This document shows, piece after piece, positions 17,443 to 64,000 of a DNA stretch of 64,000 nt. The translations under genes and the position numbers were made by a program. How positions within the stretch are numbered: position 1 is the first letter of the stretch; every line of letters begins with the position of its first letter. The DNA lies in NCBI GenBank assembly GCA_036405895.1, contig DASWWS010000001.1, positions 244,468 through 308,467 on the forward strand, written 5' to 3'. The notes under the pieces were generated by a model. That model worked only from the letters and a program-made list of their open reading frames with translations, was not told the origin of the DNA and made no database searches. The DNA comes from Minisyncoccota bacterium (lineage in GTDB: Bacteria > Patescibacteriota > Minisyncoccia > Phycocordibacterales > UBA9973).

Positions 17443-17793
17443 ATGGTTATCAGAATGAAAGAAGATATTGATACGGCACGCGCGCAAATGCGCAAAGGAA
17501 TGCTCGAGTTCTGCACGCTTTTAATTATTGAAAAAGATACAGCGTACGTCTCGGACATTCTCAAAGAATTAAAAATAGCGGACTTGATAGTGGTTGAAGG
17601 CACGCTCTATCCCCTCCTCAGTAGGCTCAAGAGCGAAGGACTACTGGAATACTCCTGGCAAGAGTCAAAGTCAGGCCCTCCTCGCAAATACTACTCGCTC
17701 ACTGATGCTGGGAAGAAGACCCTCGCTCAATTAAAAACCGTTTGGAAAACACTCACCACCTCTATTAATTCCCTTATTACCGATATAGACTAA
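17443..17793 (+). CDS. PadR family transcriptional regulator
   Basis: GTLYPLLSRLKSEGLLEYSWQESKSGPPRKYYSLTDAG PadR winged-helix signature. Confidence 0.8.
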   Translation: MVIRMKEDIDTARAQMRKGMLEFCTLLIIEKDTAYVSDILKELKIADLIVVEGTLYPLLSRLKSEGLLEYSWQESKSGPPRKYYSLTDAGKKTLAQLKTVWKTLTTSINSLITDID

Positions 17794-17797
17794 TACT

Positions 17798-19390
17798 ATG
17801 AAAAAGACAACAACAATTTCGCTCGCAAAAACACTCTTCCATATTGAAGAAGATGCTTATGCTATTTTGGACGCATACTTGAACTCTGTTCGCACGCACT
17901 TTGCCCCACACCCTGACCGCGAAGAAATTCTCGCCGACATTGAAAGCCGCATTGCAGAGCGCTTTTCTGAAAATGGCACTGATATTATCACCACTACACA
18001 AGTAGAGTTTGTTATTGATGCAATGGGCTCGATTTCACAGTTTGATACTGAAGAGGGTGTTGAAGGTGCGGGTATGCAGAAAGCGACCAAGCGCCTGTAC
18101 CGAGACCCTGATACTCGAGTGCTTGCAGGTGTTGCCTCAGGACTTGGGTACTATCTCGGTGTAGACCGCACGATTATCCGCGTACTCTTTGTTGTTTCTA
18201 TCTTTTTCGGAGGGTTTGGAGTAATTGCGTACTTGGTGCTCTGGATCGCAACTCCGCTTGCCAAAAGCGCTGCGCAGAAACTTGAAATGCACGGGCTTCC
18301 AGTCACCCTTAAGGCAATGAGCGAAGTAGTGCGCGAGCGCTTTGAAGAAATTGACGAGAAGCGTATTACCGACGGTGCAAAAAATCTTGGCACTGCAATT
18401 GAGCGCGGAGCAAATGAAGTAGTTGCCCTATTAGGCCCAATTTTCCGAGTAATTGCCGGAACGGTGCTCACTGTAACCGGGCTTATCGGCGCTGCCGCAA
18501 TGACTATTTTTGCCGCTCTTGCCCTCTTTGACATGCCGGAGAAATTCTTTGGACCAAGTGCGGCGGCTCTCCTTACTGGTCCGTACTACTATCTTGCAGT
18601 GCTTGCAACCTATGTCGCACTCGTCCTTCCTATAGTAATTGTCCTTCTGTGGGGCATTGGCATTCTTCGCAAGAAAAGCCTCTTCACTAGTATCAACACC
18701 ATGGTAATTGCTGCTGTAGTTTGGTTCTTTGCAATTGTTCTTGCCGGAGTTACTGTATCGCGCCTTGCATATCGTATAAATGAGGCCATGCAAAACGACC
18801 CGAGCGTTATTGCACAGACGGTAGTGCTTCCTGTTGAAGCTTTTGGATCATTGAGTGTGTCTGATGCAAAACGTGTGAACATTGTCATTGGCGACGAATA
18901 CAAAGTTGAAATGAATGGCTCTCATGCGGGTATTGATCGGACTTCAGCTGCTGTAATAGACGGTGTACTGACAATATCCGGCAATGATGTAGCCCCTGTG
19001 TGCATGTTCTGTCCTCACGCACCGCTTTCTATCACTGTTACAGTGCCGACTCTCGCTGCGATTACTCTTCATGATGCAGCGCGTGTAGAGGGATCGCTCA
19101 ATGCAAGCAATCTTATTGTTGTCATGACGGACGCAAGCCGTTTGACTCTTTCAGGGAGCGCAACAACAGTAGAAGTTACCGCAAGCGATGCTTCGCGATT
19201 TGACGGAGCAACCTTCCCTGTCAAAAGCGCCCGCATTATTTCCCGCGACGCTGCACGTGTGATGATTAGCGCAGACACTATTTTGGTGGTGGACGCGTAC
19301 GGTGCCAGCCGTGTGACCTATGCGCACTCTCCTGAATTGAGTGTCAAAAAGTCCGACGATGCAAAAGTAGTGCCAGCCGGAGAAGAGTAG
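17798..19390 (+). CDS. Membrane protein with PspC domain and C-terminal DUF4097-like beta-rich domain
   Basis: RLYRDPDTRVLAGVASGLGYYLGVDRTIIRVLFVVSIFFGGFGVIAYLVLWI PspC motif; several TM helices; repeated ASR/TL beta segments. Confidence 0.6.
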   Translation: MKKTTTISLAKTLFHIEEDAYAILDAYLNSVRTHFAPHPDREEILADIESRIAERFSENGTDIITTTQVEFVIDAMGSISQFDTEEGVEGAGMQKATKRLYRDPDTRVLAGVASGLGYYLGVDRTIIRVLFVVSIFFGGFGVIAYLVLWIATPLAKSAAQKLEMHGLPVTLKAMSEVVRERFEEIDEKRITDGAKNLGTAIERGANEVVALLGPIFRVIAGTVLTVTGLIGAAAMTIFAALALFDMPEKFFGPSAAALLTGPYYYLAVLATYVALVLPIVIVLLWGIGILRKKSLFTSINTMVIAAVVWFFAIVLAGVTVSRLAYRINEAMQNDPSVIAQTVVLPVEAFGSLSVSDAKRVNIVIGDEYKVEMNGSHAGIDRTSAAVIDGVLTISGNDVAPVCMFCPHAPLSITVTVPTLAAITLHDAARVEGSLNASNLIVVMTDASRLTLSGSATTVEVTASDASRFDGATFPVKSARIISRDAARVMISADTILVVDAYGASRVTYAHSPELSVKKSDDAKVVPAGEE

Positions 19391-37226: not shown

Positions 37227-39023
37227 TTACGCCATCAATACCTGGTTTTTTATCAATCGCTGGTATTCTGCAGAATTCTTTTCAAGCTCTTTATGAGTTC
37301 CTTGGTCTACTATCTTCCCTTCTTTCACTACAAAAATAATATCAGCATCAACAACAGTAGAGAGGCGGTGTGCGATGATTATCGTAGTGCGGCCTTCCGC
37401 GCTTTTGTTGATTGCGTCATGAATCAGCTTTTCGTTAATAGAGTCGAGCGCACTGGTTGCTTCGTCAAAAATAAGAATTTTAGGGTCTTTGATAAGAGCG
37501 CGGGCGATACCGATACGTTGGCGCTCTCCGCCTGAAACTTTCACTCCCCCTTCGCCAATCACTGTATCAAGCCCGTGATCTTTTAGTTTTGCTATGAATT
37601 CGTCGAGTGAAGCATCAGAGATTGCTTTGTTGAGACGCTCATCATCAATATCAGAATTAGTAGGCAAGCCGAACAATATGTTGTCGCGGATGCTTCTATC
37701 AAAGAGCTCGATTTTTTGCTCCACATTTCCAATCTGAGAACGAAGCCAACGGAGGTCAAGCTCCTTCAACGGTACTCCATCAATCAATATCTCTCCTCCT
37801 GTCGCTTCATAATACCTGCGCATCAAGTTTACGATAGTGCTTTTTCCGGAACCCGATACTCCTACAAAGCCAACCTTTGCGCCGGCCGGAATAGTGAAGT
37901 TGATGTCTGTAATAGTGTGCTCCTGTTCTTTTTCTTCCGTGCTTTCGTCTTCAATTTCTTTTGCACTTTTTCGATACGGATATGCAAAGCTCACATTCTT
38001 AAATTGTATTTCGCCCCGCAGTTCAAGAATTGTTTTTCCACCAATATTCGGGTCAATATCCGGCGCGATATCCAACAGCTCAAAGTATTTTTTGATTTCT
38101 ACAACCTGGAACAATACCTGCCGCTGAGAATTCATGATGCTCATCAAATTACCAAACACGGCACTGGTCCATGAGTACAGTGCAACAAACGTACCAACAG
38201 AATGAGCACCGTTGAGAATGTAATAGGTCCCTAATCCGAGAGTTGAATATTGACCGACCGTAATAATGATTCTATGTAAATAAAATGTATTGATGTATTT
38301 ACTCCAAGTACTCATACTGAAATCAGTAACCTTGTCATAGTCATTTTTAAACGAGTCTGCTGTACGCTTTTCTTGCGCTTCTGCAATCACCAGTGTTGAA
38401 TTTCTGAAAAGCTCAGACTGCAGCTTTGATTGCTGTTGGTTATTTTTTCGCACCTGTTCTACTTTTGGAAAAAATTGTATGTTGCGTCGATACGAAAGAA
38501 CAATATAGAGGGTGGCAAAAAAAGTAGACGTAAGCGCTACGCGCCAATCAAAATATAGTAGGAAAATTGTCATTGCAAATATCTGCAATACACTTGGCAA
38601 GATATTGTTTAATGTAAGGAACATCATTCCAGAAAGTGAATTCTGGCCCTTATTTACAACGGTTTGTTTTACGCCAGAGTGCTCATTTATATGTTGCCCA
38701 ATAGAGAAGTCAAACATTCGCTTCATTGAAAGCACAGAGAATGCTTTCTCTATCGCAAAATCTAGCTTCTTTATTTCAACTTGCTCGCGAATATATGCAA
38801 TAATTTGATCTCTAAAAAACGCGGCACCAAAAGCGGCTAGTAAAAAGTAAGCTGTATAACGAGCATTGCCACTAATTACCGCATCCACGCCCTTACTAAA
38901 AAGCAATGGAGAGAAAGCATTCAGGAGCTGTCCTACAAGCATCAATGCCGCAACAACAGCAAATGAGCCCCAAAAGGGCTTAAAGAAAAACAATACGCGC
39001 TTTAAGAAAGAGGTTTTACTCAT
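37227..39023 (-). CDS. ABC exporter fused permease/ATPase (pair 2, subunit A)
   Basis: GVSGSGKSTIVNLM Walker A, VSGGERQR, ILIFDEATSALD. Confidence 0.85.
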   Translation of the reverse strand: MSKTSFLKRVLFFFKPFWGSFAVVAALMLVGQLLNAFSPLLFSKGVDAVISGNARYTAYFLLAAFGAAFFRDQIIAYIREQVEIKKLDFAIEKAFSVLSMKRMFDFSIGQHINEHSGVKQTVVNKGQNSLSGMMFLTLNNILPSVLQIFAMTIFLLYFDWRVALTSTFFATLYIVLSYRRNIQFFPKVEQVRKNNQQQSKLQSELFRNSTLVIAEAQEKRTADSFKNDYDKVTDFSMSTWSKYINTFYLHRIIITVGQYSTLGLGTYYILNGAHSVGTFVALYSWTSAVFGNLMSIMNSQRQVLFQVVEIKKYFELLDIAPDIDPNIGGKTILELRGEIQFKNVSFAYPYRKSAKEIEDESTEEKEQEHTITDINFTIPAGAKVGFVGVSGSGKSTIVNLMRRYYEATGGEILIDGVPLKELDLRWLRSQIGNVEQKIELFDRSIRDNILFGLPTNSDIDDERLNKAISDASLDEFIAKLKDHGLDTVIGEGGVKVSGGERQRIGIARALIKDPKILIFDEATSALDSINEKLIHDAINKSAEGRTTIIIAHRLSTVVDADIIFVVKEGKIVDQGTHKELEKNSAEYQRLIKNQVLMA

Positions 39024-46835: not shown

Positions 46836-47597
46836 CTATCGCCCCGAGCTGAGCATTTCTTCTACCATAGCCTCAGTGCGCTCCGGATACGTCCACCACA
46901 AAAAGTCGTCCTCTGAATCAACAGGGGTCACCGGCACGATCAACGGGCGTATGCCGAACATGCTTTCAAGCTTTTCGAAACTTGGCACTACTTTTGTAAG
47001 AGTAAATTCACGCTCTTCTTCGCTCATAAGCATGTTTTCAAACAGCACGCCGTGGCAGAGAAACAGCCCCAAATAATACAAATAGTAATACTCGGACTGG
47101 AATCGCGTAGAGAAAAAATAATCCGAGAAATCAAATACTTCAACAGTGCCACCCGCGCTTTTTTGCAGCAAATCGTGATGAAAAGAAACAAGGCTGCTGC
47201 CATTGATTGTTGTTATGTCTTTGAACTTCTTCCCTTCTTGCGTATTAAAATTAATCAAACTGATTTTCTTCGCCTCTTCAAAGCGCTCCATGCCTTCTTT
47301 ATAAAAATGCAGCTTGCACAGTGCGTATTTATCAGAATTTCTCGCAACAAACTTATCCTCCGGATATTCTATAAGCAACGGATCAAGTCCGGCTTTCGCA
47401 GCCAAATCGTGAAAATGAAAAAATTCATTGTCGGGGCTTGCAATGCATCTGACGAGTACGGCCTTATTGCCTTGTATAAGAGGCTCTGGAAGCTTTGGTC
47501 CGAGGAATTCCTCCACCTTCTTCAAGAGCGCTGTATCATTTCTTCGGGCAGCCAAGATTGCCTTTACTTCTTCAAGCGGAGTATAGAGGTTTTTCAT
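46836..47597 (-). CDS. Hypothetical protein
   Basis: 253-aa ORF, no motif recognised. Confidence 0.4.
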   Translation of the reverse strand: MKNLYTPLEEVKAILAARRNDTALLKKVEEFLGPKLPEPLIQGNKAVLVRCIASPDNEFFHFHDLAAKAGLDPLLIEYPEDKFVARNSDKYALCKLHFYKEGMERFEEAKKISLINFNTQEGKKFKDITTINGSSLVSFHHDLLQKSAGGTVEVFDFSDYFFSTRFQSEYYYLYYLGLFLCHGVLFENMLMSEEEREFTLTKVVPSFEKLESMFGIRPLIVPVTPVDSEDDFLWWTYPERTEAMVEEMLSSGR

Positions 47598-48742
47598 TAT
47601 CGATTAACTCCAAAAATAAAGGCGTTTTTTTCTCCAAAGCTCGGTATCAAAATATCCTCGCGCTCAACTCCTGAGAAATGCTCTGTTGTAAGGCGCTCTA
47701 CTATTGCGGCAGTGTTCAAATATTTTTCCATTGCCACTGCGGTGCCTCCTTGAATGGCAATCCATCCGTCGGGTGCAAGATGTTTTTTTGAAAGCATGAG
47801 CACTTGTTCAAAGAAATGAGTATAGTCGCGCTCATAGCTGTCTTCCAAATGAACCATAGGATTGTCTGTCAGGTCCGAAATAATGCCGTCAAAATGCTCG
47901 CCCTTGTTCGTTTTTAAATACTGCAATGCGTCTCCTATGAAAAGCGTTACATTAGGATGATCAAATACTTTCTGTCCGAGGTGCTTTTTTGCGCTCATGA
48001 CAACTTCCACATCCAAGTCAATGATAGTGATTGCAAGATTTGGATTTTTTTCAAGAGCAGCTTCGGCTACATATCCGTCCCCGCCGCCAAGAATCAATAA
48101 GCGTGCATCGTTTTTCGTGAGTTTTTTCAAAACAGCTTCGTCGTAGAGCTGGTGGTCCTTCTCTGAAGTTTGCATGACGCCGTCAATAAGCATGCATCTT
48201 CCAAATTCGTCAGTATCGACTATTTCAATTTTCTGAAACCCGGAAGTAATATTAGCAACTCTCTCAGTAACATGAATGAGCTGCTCTGACCCGTCGCTAT
48301 AGACAGGCATGCGCAGCGTGTCCGGGCTCCCCGCGGATTCAGGCAGGAGATTATACGTACGGTCAATGCTTTTTATCACCATGCGCCGGTGCAAAATTTT
48401 CTCCAGTATGTAGTCAACCACTTTTCGCGTCATGGCATCGCTTGAACAGGTATAGACATCAATTGAGAGATATCCGTGCTCCGGCCATGAATGAACAGAC
48501 ATGTGCGAAGTGGAGAGCAAGAGAAAGCCTGTCACCCCCTGAGGCTCGAAAGGGAAAAAGGCTTCGTCTAAAAGCACAATATTGGTGCCATCAATAGACT
48601 CGGTCATGACTTTTTTCAGAAATTCAACCGAATTGATCTGCTGTCGATTACAGCCGAACAAATCCAAAATATAGTGGGCTCCTACTACCCTATTTTCATC
48701 CAGTGCCTTATTCTCCATACTCTTCTTCATTTTCACTTTCAT
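47597..48742 (-). CDS. Fusion protein: S-adenosylmethionine decarboxylase (SpeH-type, pyruvoyl) + spermidine synthase / aminopropyltransferase
   Basis: N-half GAHYILDLFGC...GVTGFLLLSTSHMSVHSWPEHGYLSIDVYTC aligns to SpeH (ESHxxxHTWPE); C-half LILGGGDGYVAEAAL...IIDLD...DGIISDLTD aligns to SpeE. Confidence 0.7.
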   Translation of the reverse strand: MKVKMKKSMENKALDENRVVGAHYILDLFGCNRQQINSVEFLKKVMTESIDGTNIVLLDEAFFPFEPQGVTGFLLLSTSHMSVHSWPEHGYLSIDVYTCSSDAMTRKVVDYILEKILHRRMVIKSIDRTYNLLPESAGSPDTLRMPVYSDGSEQLIHVTERVANITSGFQKIEIVDTDEFGRCMLIDGVMQTSEKDHQLYDEAVLKKLTKNDARLLILGGGDGYVAEAALEKNPNLAITIIDLDVEVVMSAKKHLGQKVFDHPNVTLFIGDALQYLKTNKGEHFDGIISDLTDNPMVHLEDSYERDYTHFFEQVLMLSKKHLAPDGWIAIQGGTAVAMEKYLNTAAIVERLTTEHFSGVEREDILIPSFGEKNAFIFGVNR

Positions 48743-51503: not shown

Positions 51504-51550
51504 CAGAAGGACGGTCCTTCTGAGCCTAGCAAGGACCATCCTTGCTAGGC
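51504..51550 (-). promoter_or_regulatory. Tandem perfect stem-loops between dnaJ stop and lysS promoter
   Basis: CAGAAGGAC-g-GTCCTTCTG and GCCTAGCAAGGA-cca-TCCTTGCTAGGC; no U-tract; TATAAT + GAGG of lysS follow. Confidence 0.5.
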
Positions 51551-52614
51551 TAGATTCCCTCCTTTTTCAGGTCTTCGATAATCTCTTTCGCTTTCTTTGA
51601 GAGCTTTTCCGGAAGAGTGATGTTGAGCTTGATGACAAAGTTTCCGCGCTTGCTTCCGCCAGTCGGCACGCCGTGATTTTTCAGTACGACAGTGTCACCC
51701 ACTTTTGTTCCGCTCGGAATTACGAAATCGATTTTCCCGTCGAGGGTTTCAATGCTGTGTTCAGCTCCCAAAAGTGCATCAGTCAATTTGATTGAGTGGT
51801 TTGAGACAAGGTCGTGTCCTTGGCGCGCAATTGTTTTGTGCGGTGCGACAGATACGTGAACATAAAGGTCTCCCGACTGCCCGCCGGAAATCGCTTCGCC
51901 CATGCCGCTGAGTCGAAGTGTTTCGCCATTTTGAATACCGCTTGGAACATTGATTTTGATAGTGCGCGCTTCAGTTACCACACCATCGCCCTTACAGGTC
52001 TTGCAAGGTTCTTTGGGGATTTTTCCTTTACCAAAACACTTGTTGCACGTTTGGTTGGTGGCAATAGAACCGAGTATGGTGCGCTGTACGGTACGGATAG
52101 ATCCTTTACCATCGCACTTCGAACACGTCTCAAGCTTGCTCCCTGGTTGTGCACCGTCGCCCTTACAGGTGGTACAAGTAGAAGGCTTGGTCACGCGGAT
52201 TTCTTTTTCTACACCAAAGATAGCGTCTTTGAAATCAATTGATATGTTTGTCTGCAGATCATTTCCGCGACGCTGGCGACTTGACCTTCCTCCACCGAAC
52301 ATCTCGCCAAAAATATCTCCCATATCAAAGCCGAAGCCTTGCCCACCTTGCGAGAAGTCAAAACCGTTCGGGTCAAATCCACCGAAGCCTCCGCCTCCCA
52401 TGTTGGGCCCTGCACTACCAAACTGATCGTATTGCGCGCGCTTAGTATCATCAGAGAGCGTTTGATACGCCTCATTTACTTCCTTAAACTTCTTGTCGTC
52501 TCCTTTATTCTTATCGGGATGATACTGGTGCGCGAGCTTATGAAATGCCTTTTTGATTTCATCTTTTGAAGCGCCTTTCGACACTCCTAATGTTTCGTAA
52601 TAGTCTTTTGCCAT
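51550..52614 (-). CDS. dnaJ: Chaperone DnaJ
   Basis: J-domain HPD (YHPDKN), G/F region, four CxxCxGxG zinc motifs. Confidence 0.9.
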
Positions 52615-52787: not shown

Positions 52788-54674
52788 TTATTGGCTATCT
52801 GTTTTTTCTTCCCCGGTAGTGTCGGTCGCCTCAGCATCTTTTGCTTCGCCTTCAGGGGCTGACTCTTGCGGCTGGGCCTTGGATACCGCTTCGCCGATCT
52901 TGGACATCTCGGTTGAAAGGGTGTGAACAGCAGCTTCGATAGAAGCTTTATCACTTCCCTCCTTGGCTTTCTTCACGGCATCAATCGCACCCTGTACAGA
53001 AGTTTTAATCTCTTCAGTCACATGCTCTGCATGGTCGGTGAGCGCTTTTTCTGCTGCGAATACTGTCATGTCAGCGGTGTTCTTTGTGTCCACTAGCGCT
53101 TTCTTTTCTTCATCTTCCTTTGCGTGAAGCTCGGCGTCATTTTTCATGCGCTCGATATCTTCTGGAGTAAGACCAGAAGAGGCTTCAATCCGGATAGACT
53201 GCTCTTTGCCGGATGCCTTGTCTTTTGCTTTCACATTGAGGATGCCGTTTGCATCAACATCGAATGTCACCTCCACCTGCGGCATGCCGCGCGGTGCCGG
53301 TGGAATGCCGTCGAGGATAAACCGTCCGAGCGATTTGTTGTCGCTTGCCATTGGTCGCTCGCCTTGAGTGATATGGATTTCAACAGAAGTCTGGTTGTCG
53401 GCCGCAGTTGAGAACACCTGACTTTTTGATGAAGGAATGGTCGTGTTACGCTCTACGAGCTTTGTTGCCACTCCGCCAAGGGTTTCAATACCGAGAGAAA
53501 GCGGAATCACGTCGAGCAAGAGAACATCGCGCACGTCGCCCTGCAATACTCCTCCCTGGACTGCAGCACCGAGTGCCACCACTTCGTCCGGGTTGATAGT
53601 GCGGTTAGGTTCTTTGCCGAAGAGCTTCTTTACCTCTTCAACAATTTTCGGCATACGGGTCTGTCCTCCCACCAAAATGATTTCATCAATATCTGCAATC
53701 TTAAACGGTGATGCATCGATTGCGCGCTTCGTGATTTCGATAGAACGCATAACAAATTCGTCTGCAAGGTTTTCAAGCTGAGCGCGAGACATCTTCAAAA
53801 GAAGGTGCTGCGGCCCCGCATCAGTTGAAGTGATAAAGGGAATGTTGATTTCAGTTTCAGGAGTAGTAGAAAGCTCGATTTTTGCTTTTTCTGCGGCTTC
53901 ATCGAGTCGCTGAAGCGCAAGCGGGTCTTTTGTTACATCCACACCGGACTCTTTTTTGAATTCGGCTGCGATCCATTCAACAATGGTGCGGTCAATATCG
54001 CGCCCCCCCATCATGGAGTCTCCGTCGGTGGACTTCACCTCAATAACATCATTGCCGATTTCAAGAACAGACACATCAAAGGTACCTCCTCCAAAGTCGT
54101 ATACCACCACCTGCTCATCCTTTTTTGTATCAAAGCCATAAGCAAGCGCGGCTGCAGTCGGTTCATTAATAATGCGCTTTACATCAAGGCCTGCAATTGC
54201 ACCCGCATCTTTTGTCGCCTTACGCTGCGCATCGTTAAAGTACGCAGGCACGGTGATGATCGCTTCAGTGATCTTTTCACCGAGCTTTGCTTCAACATCT
54301 GTTTTTATTTTCTGCAAAATCATTGCTGAGATTTCTTCTGGGCGGTATTGTTTTCCGTCAAGGGTTACTTCCGCTCCACCATCAGCTCCTGCAGCTACAG
54401 GAAACGGCATGTGAGAAATCACTTTATCAATGCCGGCATCAGAGAATTTGTGACCCATCAATCGCTTGATACCGTACACAGTATTTTGCGGATTGGTCAC
54501 GGCCTGGCGCTTTGCCAAAAGGCCGACAAGACGGTCACCGTTTTTTGCTTGTGCGACAATAGAGGGGGTTGTGCGAGACCCTTCAATGTTTTCGATGATT
54601 TTTGGCTGTCCGCCTTCAATGATTGCGACAGCGCTGTTTGTGGTTCCGAGGTCAATTCCGATGATTTTAGCCAT
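52788..54674 (-). CDS. dnaK: Chaperone DnaK (Hsp70)
   Basis: [25 protein letters not shown], full-length 628 aa. Confidence 0.95.
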
Positions 54675-54796
54675 AATATGTGTGTGAAAAAATTATTTTA
54701 TAAGGTAAAAGTAAATCCAAGTGTATTTCAAGCAATTCTTCCGTTTCTACCGTTTTTTCGTGGTCGCGAAATACTTGTTGATAGTATAAATGATTT

Positions 54797-55354
54797 GTGA
54801 TATTGTGCAAGTACATGAGTAAACCAAGGGATACAAGAGAGAAGAAGTCGTTCTCAAAGCAAATCCTTGCCCTCCTCTCGGCAAAACCGGCTGTTTCTGT
54901 GGCTGAGCTCACAGAGAGCATTGAGGCGCTGGGAAGCGAGAAATATGCCCTCACACGCTCATTAAAGGGCCTTACAGAGTCGGGACTAGTGGAAACACAC
55001 CATTCAGGCCAGCAGGCCTATACGCGCCTCACGCGCGAAGGAAAGAAGAAGGCGCACAGCCTCAAGCTTGAGAGCGACACCGTTCTTTTTGATCCAACCT
55101 GGGACGGCAAATGGCGTATTATTCTTCTCGACCTACCAGAAGAGCGCAAAGCTGAGCGCGAAGGCCTGCGGTACCTCTTGAAAAAGGCCGGGTTTATATT
55201 ATTGAAAAATTCGGTCTGGATCTCCCCTCACCCGTTTGAGCACTTGTTTATGAATATTAAAAAAGACCTCACCCTCACCACAGAATTGATGATATTTGTT
55301 ACTGACACTATTGATGCGGAAACAGAAAAAGAATTTATAACATTGGCAAAATAA
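54797..55354 (+). CDS. PaaX-like winged-helix transcriptional regulator, encoded antisense between grpE and dnaK
   Basis: N-terminal wHTH; C-terminal WDGKWRIILLDLPE-x-R-x-REGLRYLLKKAGFILLKNSVWISP resembles PaaX C-domain. Confidence 0.45.
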   Translation: MILCKYMSKPRDTREKKSFSKQILALLSAKPAVSVAELTESIEALGSEKYALTRSLKGLTESGLVETHHSGQQAYTRLTREGKKKAHSLKLESDTVLFDPTWDGKWRIILLDLPEERKAEREGLRYLLKKAGFILLKNSVWISPHPFEHLFMNIKKDLTLTTELMIFVTDTIDAETEKEFITLAK

Positions 55355-55389
55355 AAGACCCCTCAACGAGGGGTCAGTAAGTGTACAAT

Positions 55390-55584
55390 TTATTGTGTTT
55401 GGTGTTTTCTTTCTATATAGAGAAGTCGAATTCCTATAAGTCCGGTGATGCAACCGCCGCCAAGTGTTGTAAGGAGTTGTTCGGGGGTCATATTCGGATT
55501 TCCTAAAGACGGAATCATCATAGTGGAAAGAACCACTGCCATAACAATAAGACATGCAAATGCAATTTGTTGTAAAGGAGTCAT
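55390..55584 (-). CDS. Small membrane protein
   Basis: 64 aa, two TM. Confidence 0.3.
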   Translation of the reverse strand: MTPLQQIAFACLIVMAVVLSTMMIPSLGNPNMTPEQLLTTLGGGCITGLIGIRLLYIERKHQTQ

Positions 55585-55645
55585 AATTTTTATTTAATTT
55601 TGTTTACAACATTATATCCTTTTTTAGGATAATGTCAAATGTGCC

Positions 55646-56200
55646 TTATTTTGCCTTGTACACTGAGACACGAGCCGGACGGAGGATGGATTCCCCGAGC
55701 TTGTAGCCTGGCTGGAGTACGCCGGATATCGTGTGAGCGAGGCCACTGTCCTCAGTCTCAGTTTCTGACACCGCTTCGTGAAGACTTGGATCAAAACTAT
55801 CCCCCACTGCGCCAAATACGCTGAAGCCTTTATCCTTAAGAGTGTTCATCAATTGCGCATAAATGTACTCTACACCGGTGCGCCAGCTTGCATCCACCTT
55901 CTCCCAGGCTTCTTTGTTGTTCATTGCAAGCGAAAAGCTGTCGACTACCGGAAGCAGTTCTTCGATAAAGGACTCTTCAACAATGCTTCGCATGCGCTTT
56001 TTGTCTTCGTCTGCACTCTTTACGACATTTGCGTAGTCGGCTCGTGCGCGCTGCCAGCCGTCGAGATATTCAGTCTTTTCCTTTTGGAGCACCTTTATTT
56101 TCTCTTTGAGTTTTTTGAGCTGGTCAGACCCCGAGAGCTCGGTGCCGTCTTCATTGCTTTCCACTATTTCTTCATCAAATACGATTTCGTCTTCTTCCAT
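55646..56200 (-). CDS. grpE: Nucleotide exchange factor GrpE
   Basis: Coiled-coil N-half, ...YLDGWQRARADYANVVKS GrpE signature. Confidence 0.85.
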   Translation of the reverse strand: MEEDEIVFDEEIVESNEDGTELSGSDQLKKLKEKIKVLQKEKTEYLDGWQRARADYANVVKSADEDKKRMRSIVEESFIEELLPVVDSFSLAMNNKEAWEKVDASWRTGVEYIYAQLMNTLKDKGFSVFGAVGDSFDPSLHEAVSETETEDSGLAHTISGVLQPGYKLGESILRPARVSVYKAK

Positions 56201-56271
56201 ATAGCCCTGATTATACCGATTTTTGGCAATAAAAAAAGCCCAGGTTCACTGGGACTTTCTGTTGATTGTTG

Positions 56272-56637
56272 TTACCATTTAATTTTTGGTGGTGCCTGTA
56301 CGAGTTTGGAGTTCTCTAATCGTTCTATTCGTTGACGATAATTCGCATATACTTCTTTAGTCAAAGTAATTTTAGAATTATACTTTCTAAACAGAAGCGT
56401 TGCATGAGTTTCGGTTTCGATAACTTCGTCAGGTTTCTCCAAGGAAAAGATCGCCATTCCAGTCCTTGTTTTCTGCTCAAAAGAAATTGTATCCTTTATA
56501 GCAATAATTTCAGGGACTGAACGATAATCTTTGTTACCCGTCTGGGCAAATAGTCTGATGCTTGCGGTGAAGCAAAAGAGCAATACCATAGTGAATTTCA
56601 TATAGATTTGTTTTAAGAACAGTGATACGTAGTCCAT
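56272..56637 (-). CDS. Secreted hypothetical protein
   Basis: Signal peptide MKFTMVLLFCFTASIRLFAQ. Confidence 0.35.
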   Translation of the reverse strand: MDYVSLFLKQIYMKFTMVLLFCFTASIRLFAQTGNKDYRSVPEIIAIKDTISFEQKTRTGMAIFSLEKPDEVIETETHATLLFRKYNSKITLTKEVYANYRQRIERLENSKLVQAPPKIKW

Positions 56638-63398: not shown

Positions 63399-64000
63399 TT
63401 AGGAAAGGGTTGCCTTGATGCGGCGAATGCCGGCAGATGATGCCTCTTCTTTGAGGATGCGGAAAGTGCCGAGAGCGCCCGTGTGTTCAACATGTGGGCC
63501 TCCGCAAAATTCTTTTGATACGGCATTGCCGTTTTTATCTTCAATGGAGTACACGCTGACAATATCCGGATACGTTGTGCCAAATTCCATTTCAGCGCCA
63601 ATACTCTCAGCATCTGCTTTTGGCATTTCTCTTCGAACAACGCTGTAGTCGTTTGCAATGATATCGTTTACCCACGCTTCGATGTCGTGTTTTTCTTCTT
63701 CGGTGAGCTTGCGGTCAAGATTAAAGTCGATGCGAAGGCGCTCATCGGTGATGTTTGACCCTTTTTGATGAATATCAGGACTGATAAGAGTTTGAAGCGC
63801 TGCAAGAAGCAGGTGGTGTGCTGTGTGAAGCTTTGTAGTCATCTCTGTAGCACCGGAAAGCCCGCCTTTGAACTTTTGCTCGGCACCCGCGCGCGATGCT
63901 GCCTGGTGCGCCATCATGCGCTCGTTGAATGCCGCAACATCCACTTCCCATTCCTTTTCTTTCGCAAGTTCGAGCGTGAGCTCTATCGGAAAGCCGTAGG
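63399..64000 (-). CDS. alaS: Alanyl-tRNA synthetase, 3' portion (editing domain); 5' end outside window
   Basis: LHTAHHLLLAALQTLISPDIHQKGS, EFCGGPHVEHTGALGTFRI..AAGIRRI; frame stays open upstream of the GTG the ORF track used as start. Confidence 0.75.
   Translation of the reverse strand, partial: YGFPIELTLELAKEKEWEVDVAAFNERMMAHQAASRAGAEQKFKGGLSGATEMTTKLHTAHHLLLAALQTLISPDIHQKGSNITDERLRIDFNLDRKLTEEEKHDIEAWVNDIIANDYSVVRREMPKADAESIGAEMEFGTTYPDIVSVYSIEDKNGNAVSKEFCGGPHVEHTGALGTFRILKEEASSAGIRRIKATLS

Follow-up and report, generated by a model that had tools for sequence, protein, structure and literature searches.

A mini-PaaX protein and a conserved palindrome at the dnaK promoter: a predicted autoregulated repressor in Patescibacteria

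To our knowledge, every dedicated regulator of a chaperone operon that works through a palindromic promoter operator (HrcA, HspR, CtsR and RheA) is a repressor. HrcA is the most widespread of the bacterial chaperone repressors. HspR, a MerR-family protein without a small-molecule ligand domain, represses the dnaK operon in Actinobacteria, Helicobacter, Deinococcus and others, with DnaK serving as its co-repressor. CtsR and RheA are intrinsic thermosensors whose DNA binding is temperature-sensitive. Here, we compare these systems with a dnaK locus from a Minisyncoccota bacterium of the Patescibacteria, contained in a stretch of 64,000 nucleotides (assembly GCA_036405895.1, contig DASWWS010000001.1, positions 244,468 to 308,467) that is called the window below. 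In this locus, dnaK faces a gene for a 179-residue protein, called REG below, which combines a winged helix-turn-helix (wHTH) with a Cas2-like domain, and a conserved palindrome lies between the two genes. In our judgement the best explanation, and a probable one, is that REG is an autoregulated repressor of the dnaK(-dnaJ) operon in Paceibacteria-type Patescibacteria.

REG comes from another protein family than HspR and HrcA, and its fold places it with PaaX, a regulator in which a wHTH and a dimerisation motif are followed by five C-terminal helices that form the binding domain for the inducer, phenylacetyl-CoA; PaaX represses through competition with RNA polymerase (PMC9493321). In its modelled structure, REG shares the fold and the order of the first two domains with PaaX, and PaaX is the best structural match of REG. 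Repression of divergent promoters, including its own, is known for PaaX and predicted for REG. The differences are equally clear: REG lacks the five-helix effector domain, has another operator, and lies in another context with no paa genes in view.

The locus and its relation to described systems

The features of the window on which the argument rests are the following, with position 1 being the first letter of the window.

51550-52614, minus strand: dnaJ (Pfam DnaJ, DnaJ_CXXCXGXG and DnaJ_C), on the same strand as dnaK and downstream of it, the second gene of the dnaK-dnaJ unit
52788-54674, minus strand: dnaK (Hsp70; Pfam HSP70, 1.5e-241), the predicted main target of REG
54675-54814: the divergent control region between dnaK and REG, 140 bp, read from the sequence
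54716-54731: a possible auxiliary half-site, CCAAGTGTATTTCAAG, picked out by eye; it resembles the outer-arm half-site ACAAGTATTTC plus one extra base
54749-54778: the 30-bp operator-like palindrome, ACCGTTT-TTTCGTGGTCGCGAAA-TACTTGT, with its core at 54756-54771 and its centre at 54763/54764
54778-54806, plus strand: the predicted REG promoter, TTGATA-17-TATTGT, with a TG-extended -10; its -35 begins on the final base of the palindrome
54815-55354, plus strand: REG, the wHTH and PaaX_M (Cas2-like) protein of 179 aa (Pfam PaaX_M)
55646-56200, minus strand: grpE (Pfam GrpE, 8e-39), convergent with REG

An earlier note on this stretch, made from the sequence alone, had read the locus as a heat-shock operon split by an antisense, PaaX-like regulator. 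The gene order that it gave (grpE on the minus strand, a 64-aa open reading frame (ORF) on the minus strand, the winged-helix protein on the plus strand, dnaK-dnaJ on the minus strand) is confirmed by the ORF map and by Pfam and NCBIfam. The term antisense does not fit, considering that REG overlaps no gene and is divergent from dnaK and convergent with grpE. The protein had also, in all likelihood, been drawn too long, with 185 aa from GTG 54797. The start of REG is almost certainly ATG 54815, because homologues begin there, giving 179 aa, and because the GTG, located immediately 5' of the predicted -10, precedes the expected transcription start.

How does this arrangement compare with the described chaperone regulators? 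As with HspR and its HAIR element, the regulator gene is linked to the dnaK operon, the promoter carries an inverted repeat, autoregulation is presumed, and the regulon appears small and centred on dnaK. The two systems differ in the protein, with a MerR-type HTH in HspR versus a wHTH and Cas2-like domain in REG (Pfam and NCBIfam return no MerR-family hit for REG). They also differ in gene position, HspR being the last gene of its operon whereas REG is divergent, and in operator, with CTTGAGT-N7-ACTCAAG for HAIR and ACAAGTA-TTTCGYG-RY-CRCGAAA-TACTTGT for the dnaK/REG palindrome. The earlier note had left room for a HAIR element to emerge on a careful scan; at up to 3 mismatches there are 0 matches in the window. 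With HrcA and CIRCE, the locus shares a winged helix, a long palindromic operator and an ancestral place beside grpE-dnaK-dnaJ (see below). However, HrcA is co-transcribed with its operon and controls groESL, while REG has no HrcA domains and no link to groESL was seen. The note had reported neither CIRCE nor hrcA, and both absences stand: CIRCE (TTAGCACTC-N9-GAGTGCTAA) has 0 matches at up to 3 mismatches in the entire 64-kb window, and HrcA domains are missing from the Pfam and NCBIfam hits of REG and from the 36 other larger window ORFs scanned (37 in all), as is GroEL.

CtsR and RheA resemble the predicted form of REG in being small dimeric repressors without a ligand domain, and they offer a plausible model of how REG might sense stress. 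Their folds are unrelated to that of REG, for which Pfam and NCBIfam give no CtsR family hit, and the CtsR operator is a direct heptad repeat, none of which occurs at the dnaK/REG locus. The heptad pattern (RGTCAAA-NAN-RGTCAAA) has a single chance-level match in the window, with 2 mismatches, at 63754, about 8 kb off and distant from the chaperone genes. The MarR and ArsR proteins are similar to REG in their N-terminal wHTH (weakly) and in acting as dimers on palindromes that overlap promoters, but in its modelled structure REG would dimerise through a separate ferredoxin-like (Cas2-like) domain and not through the helical bundle of MarR. In function, REG looks like the regulator of an HspR/HAIR or HrcA/CIRCE system while being a member of neither, and in structure it looks like a branch of the PaaX lineage.

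How much of a PaaX is REG? The C-terminal part, residues 100-179, matches Pfam PaaX_M (PF20803) with 76.3 bits against a cut-off of 24 (2e-21). The N-terminus gives only weak matches, all below the curated cut-offs, to MarR_2 (22.3 bits), HTH_20 and ArsR/SmtB (26 bits), and the PaaX-type wHTH itself (PF07848) reaches 13.9 bits, below its cut-off of 24.8. On the PaaX equivalog model TIGR02277, REG reaches 48.4 bits where 264.55 are required, and PaaX_C gives no hit in REG, which ends directly after PaaX_M. The AlphaFold (AF2) model, with a pLDDT (predicted local distance difference test) of 80.8, contains a wHTH followed by a beta-alpha-beta-beta-alpha-beta domain. Its best matches among solved structures are E. 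coli PaaX (8a39, E 5e-7) and a PaaX-like protein (3l09), followed by many MarR and ArsR repressors, and in the fold search REG aligns to only the first two domains of PaaX, a protein of 305 aa. A family-profile sequence search of solved structures produced insignificant wHTH matches only (eS10, HxlR, ArsR), so the link to PaaX is visible only through Pfam and through fold comparison. The likeness to PaaX pointed out in the earlier note extends to two of the three PaaX domains and stops there, the C-terminal domain being absent; REG is a 'mini-PaaX', with a wHTH and a Cas2-like dimerisation domain but without a ligand domain.

Perhaps REG is nevertheless a PaaX orthologue that serves phenylacetate catabolism and responds to phenylacetyl-CoA, its position beside dnaK being incidental. 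The names given to its homologues would agree with this, as would the strong PaaX_M match and the place of PaaX as best structural match. On the other hand, PaaX_C is missing and the scores against TIGR02277 and PF07848 fall short as described above. There are no paa genes among the 37 scanned window ORFs, the PaaX operator TGATTC-N27-GAATCA is absent from the window (0 matches also with a spacer of 25 to 29), and all 80 of the related loci described below are chaperone and ribosomal-protein contexts. We regard an orthologue of this kind as hardly credible.

Proteins with the architecture of REG are numerous. In a set of 5.8 billion proteins, 1647 homologues were detectable, and the best 120 of these have 61-98% identity, are 156-203 aa long, and all carry PaaX_M. 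The homologues come from metagenome-assembled genomes (MAGs) of Paceibacterota, Nomurabacteria and Parcubacteria, and the window itself has the appearance of a Patescibacteria genome. Run exhaustively against 1.8 billion cluster representatives, HMMER matched 2966 clusters at E <= 1e-3 and 444 at E <= 1e-10, mostly of 180-200 aa, and by these counts proteins with the short mini-PaaX architecture form a large family of their own. An alignment of 25 sequences has 54 invariant columns, and conservation in the family is highest in the C-terminal domain, where the motif WDGxWR...LRYLLKKAGF...KNSVWISP is found. JGI names many homologues 'phenylacetic acid degradation operon negative regulatory protein' or 'PaaX'; these names are over-annotations, because the effector domain is missing and the equivalog model failed. 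A separate labelling problem concerns the organisms: many of the MAGs with homologues are titled 'uncultured Candidatus Saccharibacteria', though the nearest named relatives are Nomurabacteria or Paceibacterota, which looks like automated mis-annotation.

Conservation of the gene pair and of the palindrome

The neighbourhood of REG was followed in a scan of one genome per GTDB species, in which at least 471 species have a REG relative, and the best 80 loci were analysed. In 75 of these 80 loci, dnaK lies immediately upstream of REG and divergent from it, the other five having less than 510 bp of upstream sequence. The two genes are mostly about 90-200 bp apart in the relatives, and grpE is convergent with REG and downstream of it in 65 of the 80. 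The earlier note had considered that the REG ORF might not be conserved in related genomes, but its conservation turns out to be very strong: over the 80 loci, the median identity of REG is 63%, about that of ribosomal protein S9 (62%), with DnaJ at 53%, GrpE at 47% and DnaK at 77%. Conservation at the level of S9 is unusual for a transcription factor.

When the 59 short dnaK/REG intergenic regions are aligned side by side, a dyad-symmetric element is found in every one of them (59/59). Its consensus is (TTG)ACAAGTA-TTTCGYG-RY-CRCGAAA-TACTTGT(CAA). Five positions (C-5, T2, C10, T21 and G22) are invariant in 59/59, and three more are nearly so (G7 in 58/59, G5 in 57/59, C12 in 56/59). Mirror complementarity amounts to 63%, against 28-35% in registers displaced by 1-3 bases. 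At the centre, 29 of the sequences have the dinucleotide AC and 24 its complement GT, a balance that is expected of a symmetric dimer site whose orientation to the flanking genes is immaterial.

The copy in the window has a perfect right outer arm, a degenerate left (dnaK-side) outer arm, and a core that is 1 mismatch away from TTTCGCGRYCGCGAAA. On a symmetrised 30-column position weight matrix (PWM), this site scores 37.3 bits, while the runner-up across the 64 kb scores 0.4 and the maximum in shuffled sequence is 10.2. The core on its own gives 3 matches at up to 3 mismatches in the window, a count compatible with chance (1.6 expected). The two extra matches, at 38745 and 42691, upstream of corA, have no score on the full PWM and were rejected, and matches to the outer-arm pattern in the window were likewise discarded as regulon members, being at chance level only. 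Within the sub-clade made up of the window and loci L001-L013, another sequence takes the place of the dnaK-side outer arm, and repeats that resemble half-sites (GTATTTCTAC, AAATACTTT, CCAAGTGTATTTC) occur 10-35 bp nearer to dnaK. These repeats may be auxiliary REG half-sites, or they may belong to a remodelled dnaK promoter.

Over the roughly 0.8 Mb of the 80 loci, the PWM gives one site and no more, above 28 bits, in each of 76. The four loci without a palindrome have little or no sequence upstream of REG (0-317 bp), so that every locus with enough sequence has its site (76/76). In 13 loci extra genes lie between dnaK and REG. In most of these loci the inserted genes are on the dnaK strand, with the palindrome at the head of the extended operon; L034, L043, L068 and L071 thereby have it at a distance of 0.6-3.7 kb from REG. 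Because the palindrome stays with the extended dnaK operon, it would seem to be primarily the control site of that operon and only secondarily that of REG. As an observation in its own right, the dnaK/REG junction has repeatedly gained small unannotated genes (L024, L034, L043, L057, L068 and L075), mostly on the dnaK strand and behind the operator. They include recurrent proteins of 110-155 aa, an AAA-kinase-like ORF and an ABC transporter, and may be either co-regulated stress genes or hitch-hiking mobile genes.

A blind approach, in which a metagenome collection was scanned with the 23-nt DNA pattern TTTCGYGRYCRCGAAATACTTGT alone, gave the same association from the opposite direction. The pattern occurs in 73 contigs: 65 with dnaK and REG flanking the site, 5 with REG only, at contig ends, and 3 with neither. 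The last three (L105, L106 and L113) were rejected as operators; the match lies inside the coding sequence of an aldo-keto reductase (…RNKYFVATKL…) from an unrelated organism of 50% GC and is due to chance. All 70 of the remaining sites have REG within about 1 kb (70/70), and the co-occurrence of REG and palindrome is thus complete in both directions. No match to the strict pattern in the metagenome collection adjoins groES/EL, clpB, lon or any other gene, and the regulon predicted by this pattern consists of the dnaK operon and REG.

The gene grpE stands apart from this regulon. When the 250 bp in front of grpE are scored for an operator, the window reaches -18.5 bits at best and the 62 relatives examined no more than -7.9, values equal to those of control DNA. 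Since grpE has no operator, the predicted regulon in this clade is dnaK(-dnaJ) plus REG and not the chaperone genes generally. The earlier note had proposed that the embedded regulator is a non-canonical, local controller of the chaperone genes; comparative evidence lends this idea strong support for dnaK-dnaJ and takes it away for grpE.

More distant relatives indicate how grpE came to be separated. The dnaK-linked relatives at 33-45% identity include P0126 (42% identity to REG), P0139 (33%) and, among the relatives of P0139, P0273 and P0276 (a homologue search seeded with P0139 gave 9 matches). In these loci, the regulator and a contiguous grpE-(small gene)-dnaK-dnaJ operon are transcribed away from each other, and rpsI flanks the regulator on its other side; the regulator sits directly upstream of grpE as hrcA does in Firmicutes, but in the divergent orientation. 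Palindromes are found in the same place in the intergenic region (TTGACAAGTTTTTCACTTAAATGAAA, TTTACAAGTTTTTCATACCTATGAAAA, TTGACAAATTATTCATGACCGCGTAAATAAT), of the type ACAAGT-TTTTCA-N6-TGAAAA. The wHTH helices differ from those of REG, while the C-terminal domain is still similar. Within the clade of the window, recognition helix and operator both hardly vary. The small passenger gene between grpE and dnaK is an unusual element in a grpE-dnaK-dnaJ operon; its product belongs to the PBP/PEBP family in L155 and L162 and is an unannotated protein of 124 aa in L160. Considering that the distant relatives keep grpE-dnaK-dnaJ intact, the split operon of the earlier note, correct in that grpE lies apart from dnaK-dnaJ here, is a derived rearrangement. 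As judged from these gene orders, an ancestral regulator and its operator likely faced an intact grpE-dnaK-dnaJ, and in the clade of the window grpE moved 3' of REG and lost its operator. At 27-29% identity, relatives of REG occur in unrelated contexts (RNase HII, a methyltransferase), and so the link to chaperones is a property of a subfamily and not of every mini-PaaX.

Could the gene pair simply travel together, with some other factor binding the palindrome and REG regulating other genes? The link between REG and the palindrome rests on co-occurrence, the relatives at 27-29% identity indicate a family that is not intrinsically tied to chaperones, and in the four loci mentioned above (L034, L043, L068 and L071) the palindrome remains beside dnaK with other genes between it and REG. 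It is difficult to reconcile such an arrangement, however, with the reciprocity of the association, in which the 70 blind sites all have REG and the 76 REG loci all have one palindrome. Moreover, in the distant dnaK-linked subfamily a change in the wHTH sequence goes along with a change in the type of operator, and divergent promoters that share a dyad site are the classic design for a repressor gene paired with its target. Synteny without regulation therefore seems to us rather unlikely.

Promoter geometry and the predicted mode of action

The position of the palindrome relative to the promoters was read from a stack of 137 unique, oriented sites, drawn from the GTDB and metagenome loci together with the window. 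On both sides, TTGNNN follows TAC at +4..+9 from the core. The resulting -35 hexamers are TTGTCA, TTGCTA or TTGCAA on the dnaK side and TTGTAT, TTGTCA or TTGTAC on the REG side, and a -10-like hexamer follows after a spacer of 16-18 nt, with the stacked consensus GTATATAAT on the dnaK side. The palindrome spans about -32 to -61 of both back-to-back promoters, and its outer arms hold the first bases of both -35 hexamers. The dnaK transcript is predicted to start about 39 nt from the core. Across sites, the REG start codon (consensus ATGTCAA) lies about 5-11 nt past the -10, and 8 nt past it in the window. With the ATG so close behind the -10, the REG mRNA is probably leaderless or nearly so. 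A similar spacing can be read from the sequence for grpE in the window, where TATAAT (56215..56210) lies 9 nt 5' of the ATG, and leaderless transcripts may be common in this lineage.

We consider it probable that REG controls the dnaK operon directly through the palindrome. As we envision the process, REG would bind as a dimer, held together by the Cas2-like domain as described for PaaX, to the 30-bp palindrome centred at 54763/54764. Because the outer arms contain the first bases of the -35 elements, bound REG would block RNA polymerase at both -35 regions, and dnaK(-dnaJ) and REG itself would be repressed. Proteotoxic or heat stress would then lift the repression. The signal could be an intrinsic lability of the REG dimer, as with CtsR and RheA, or it could come through DnaK, titrated away from a part as co-repressor or folding helper, as with HspR; since REG has no effector domain, dimer lability or dependence on DnaK is the most plausible choice. 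Rfam and tRNA scans of the window gave zero matches, and neither an RNA thermometer nor any other known RNA element can be detected there.

The same site might instead be used for activation, or for dual regulation, of dnaK and REG. In support of this view, the palindrome is centred about 46 bp 5' of either predicted start and covers no more of either -35 than its first 3-4 bases. In addition, a consensus scan placed no convincing -35/-10 pair on the dnaK side in the sub-clade of the window, where transcription could depend on a bound factor; a clear pair is seen only in the larger sister group. In most loci, however, both sides have near-consensus elements (on the dnaK side, -35 and -10 both match the consensus at 4/6 or better in 87/137 sites, many with GTATATAAT), and so an activator should be unnecessary. 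The closest structures, PaaX, MarR and ArsR, are those of repressors, and the dedicated regulators of chaperone operons with this layout are, as noted at the outset, repressors as well. Taking the promoters, the structural relatives and the known chaperone regulators together, we favour repression, and a role of REG as activator or dual regulator is in our opinion unlikely.

A further possibility concerns the Cas2-like domain. Nuclease activity or a toxin-like function has been proposed for some Cas2 and VapD relatives, and the domain might act in this way too, the main role of the protein then lying outside transcription. Pfam describes PaaX_M as Cas2-like, and this domain is the most conserved part of the protein. 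If it were a nuclease, one would look to the Asp at the end of beta-1, which we take to be the metal-binding position of Cas2; this residue is replaced by Asn in several dnaK-linked relatives, and its lack of conservation argues against a nuclease role. PADLOC reports no Cas2 or defence model, only weak Csa3/CARF matches at the level of the wHTH, and there is no CRISPR, cas or toxin-antitoxin partner nearby in the window or in the related loci. Furthermore, the corresponding domain of PaaX is described as a dimerisation motif (PMC9493321). A nuclease or toxin-like function is very improbable on these grounds.

Several points weigh against REG as an autoregulated, stress-relieved repressor of dnaK and account for the reserve with which we put it forward. 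The binding of REG to the palindrome, repression as opposed to activation, and relief by stress are all inferred from comparative genomics. The promoter geometry, with its limited cover of the -35 hexamers, and the weakly defined dnaK promoter in the sub-clade of the window are the same features that an activator would explain. In a few genomes REG lies apart from the palindrome, so that autoregulation does not hold everywhere. The motif was found beside no further chaperone or protease gene; its regulon may be limited to one operon, and the system could serve homeostatic feedback instead of a heat-shock response. Finally, the rest of the genome may encode HrcA with a CIRCE for groESL, or a different factor that recognises the palindrome.

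The proposal of a REG repressor can be carried one step further, though here we are more tentative. It is conceivable that REG stands for a fifth family of dedicated chaperone repressors, beside HrcA, HspR, CtsR and RheA and specific to Patescibacteria, in which the Cas2-like domain of the PaaX lineage has become both dimeriser and stress sensor; the present evidence leaves us somewhat short of expecting this. Sensing could occur through intrinsic thermolability of the domain, or the domain itself could be a client of DnaK. Either route would close a feedback loop of one operon, perhaps the sole control of proteostasis in these minimal genomes. On a speculative note, LRYLLKKAGF, the most conserved helix of the dnaK-linked subfamily, has a hydrophobic core and a basic flank, as do DnaK-binding peptides.

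Neighbouring genes and implications

The interval between REG and grpE contains a small gene with its own signals, and these features are as follows.

55357-55375: a GC-rich hairpin, GACCCCTC-aac-GAGGGGTC, an 8-nt inverted repeat with 100% complementarity and with T-runs on both strands
55390-55584, minus strand: a hydrophobic ORF of 64 aa, without a family
55638..55611, minus strand: a predicted sigma-70-type promoter for the 64-aa ORF, TTGACA-16-TATAAT, matching the consensus at 12/12 positions

A terminator scan called the hairpin on the minus strand, and it is probably a bidirectional terminator that serves both REG and the 64-aa ORF. The ORF has no Pfam, NCBIfam or PADLOC family and no tblastn counterpart among the 80 related loci. 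The earlier note had placed it between grpE and dnaK-dnaJ; it is indeed present there, but with its own promoter and terminator and with no conservation it is a separate small transcription unit outside the conserved module. It looks like a lineage-specific small membrane protein, probably highly expressed, that was inserted into the chaperone locus.

Beyond grpE comes a ribosomal-protein and rpoA block (rpsI, rplM, rplQ, rpoA, rpsD, rpsK), assigned by position, size and tblastn to relatives. An ORF of 121 aa (56272-56637, minus strand) lies between rpsI and grpE; it has a hydrophobic, signal-like segment at its N-terminus and no family hit, and its own hairpin terminator (56239-56253) is just upstream of the grpE promoter. 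Farther away, positions 17443-19390 on the plus strand encode a PadR-family regulator (116 aa) followed by a 530-aa PspC-domain, LiaF-like membrane protein with a DUF2807 adhesin-head domain. The sizes of 116 and 530 aa had suggested groES-groEL, an assignment that was dropped when Pfam gave PadR and PspC; the pair is a candidate envelope-stress module. A single ORF of 381 aa at 47597-48742 (minus strand) fuses AdoMet_dc (S-adenosylmethionine decarboxylase) to a spermidine/spermine synthase domain, which would place the two-step polyamine pathway within one protein.

What does this locus mean for the biology of these organisms? The ultra-small Patescibacteria, or candidate phyla radiation (CPR), make up a large share of bacterial diversity; few are cultivable and their gene regulation is barely known. 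We found no paper that links PaaX-like proteins to chaperone genes, and no description of heat-shock regulators in CPR bacteria, in a literature search of incomplete coverage, such that a prior description is possible. The proposed regulation follows familiar lines; its protein family and operator are new, in a lineage whose regulation is essentially unexplored. The locus provides a defined pair of protein (179 aa) and operator (30 bp), strongly conserved over hundreds of species and testable in vitro without culture. The palindrome could also be used to mark dnaK promoters, along with the expected leaderless REG transcripts, in CPR metagenomes and metatranscriptomes. If REG is indeed a repressor of dnaK, a new protein family would join the short list of bacterial chaperone regulators, the PaaX-type scaffold would prove to work without its ligand domain, and the widespread mis-annotation of these proteins as negative regulators of phenylacetic acid degradation would be corrected.

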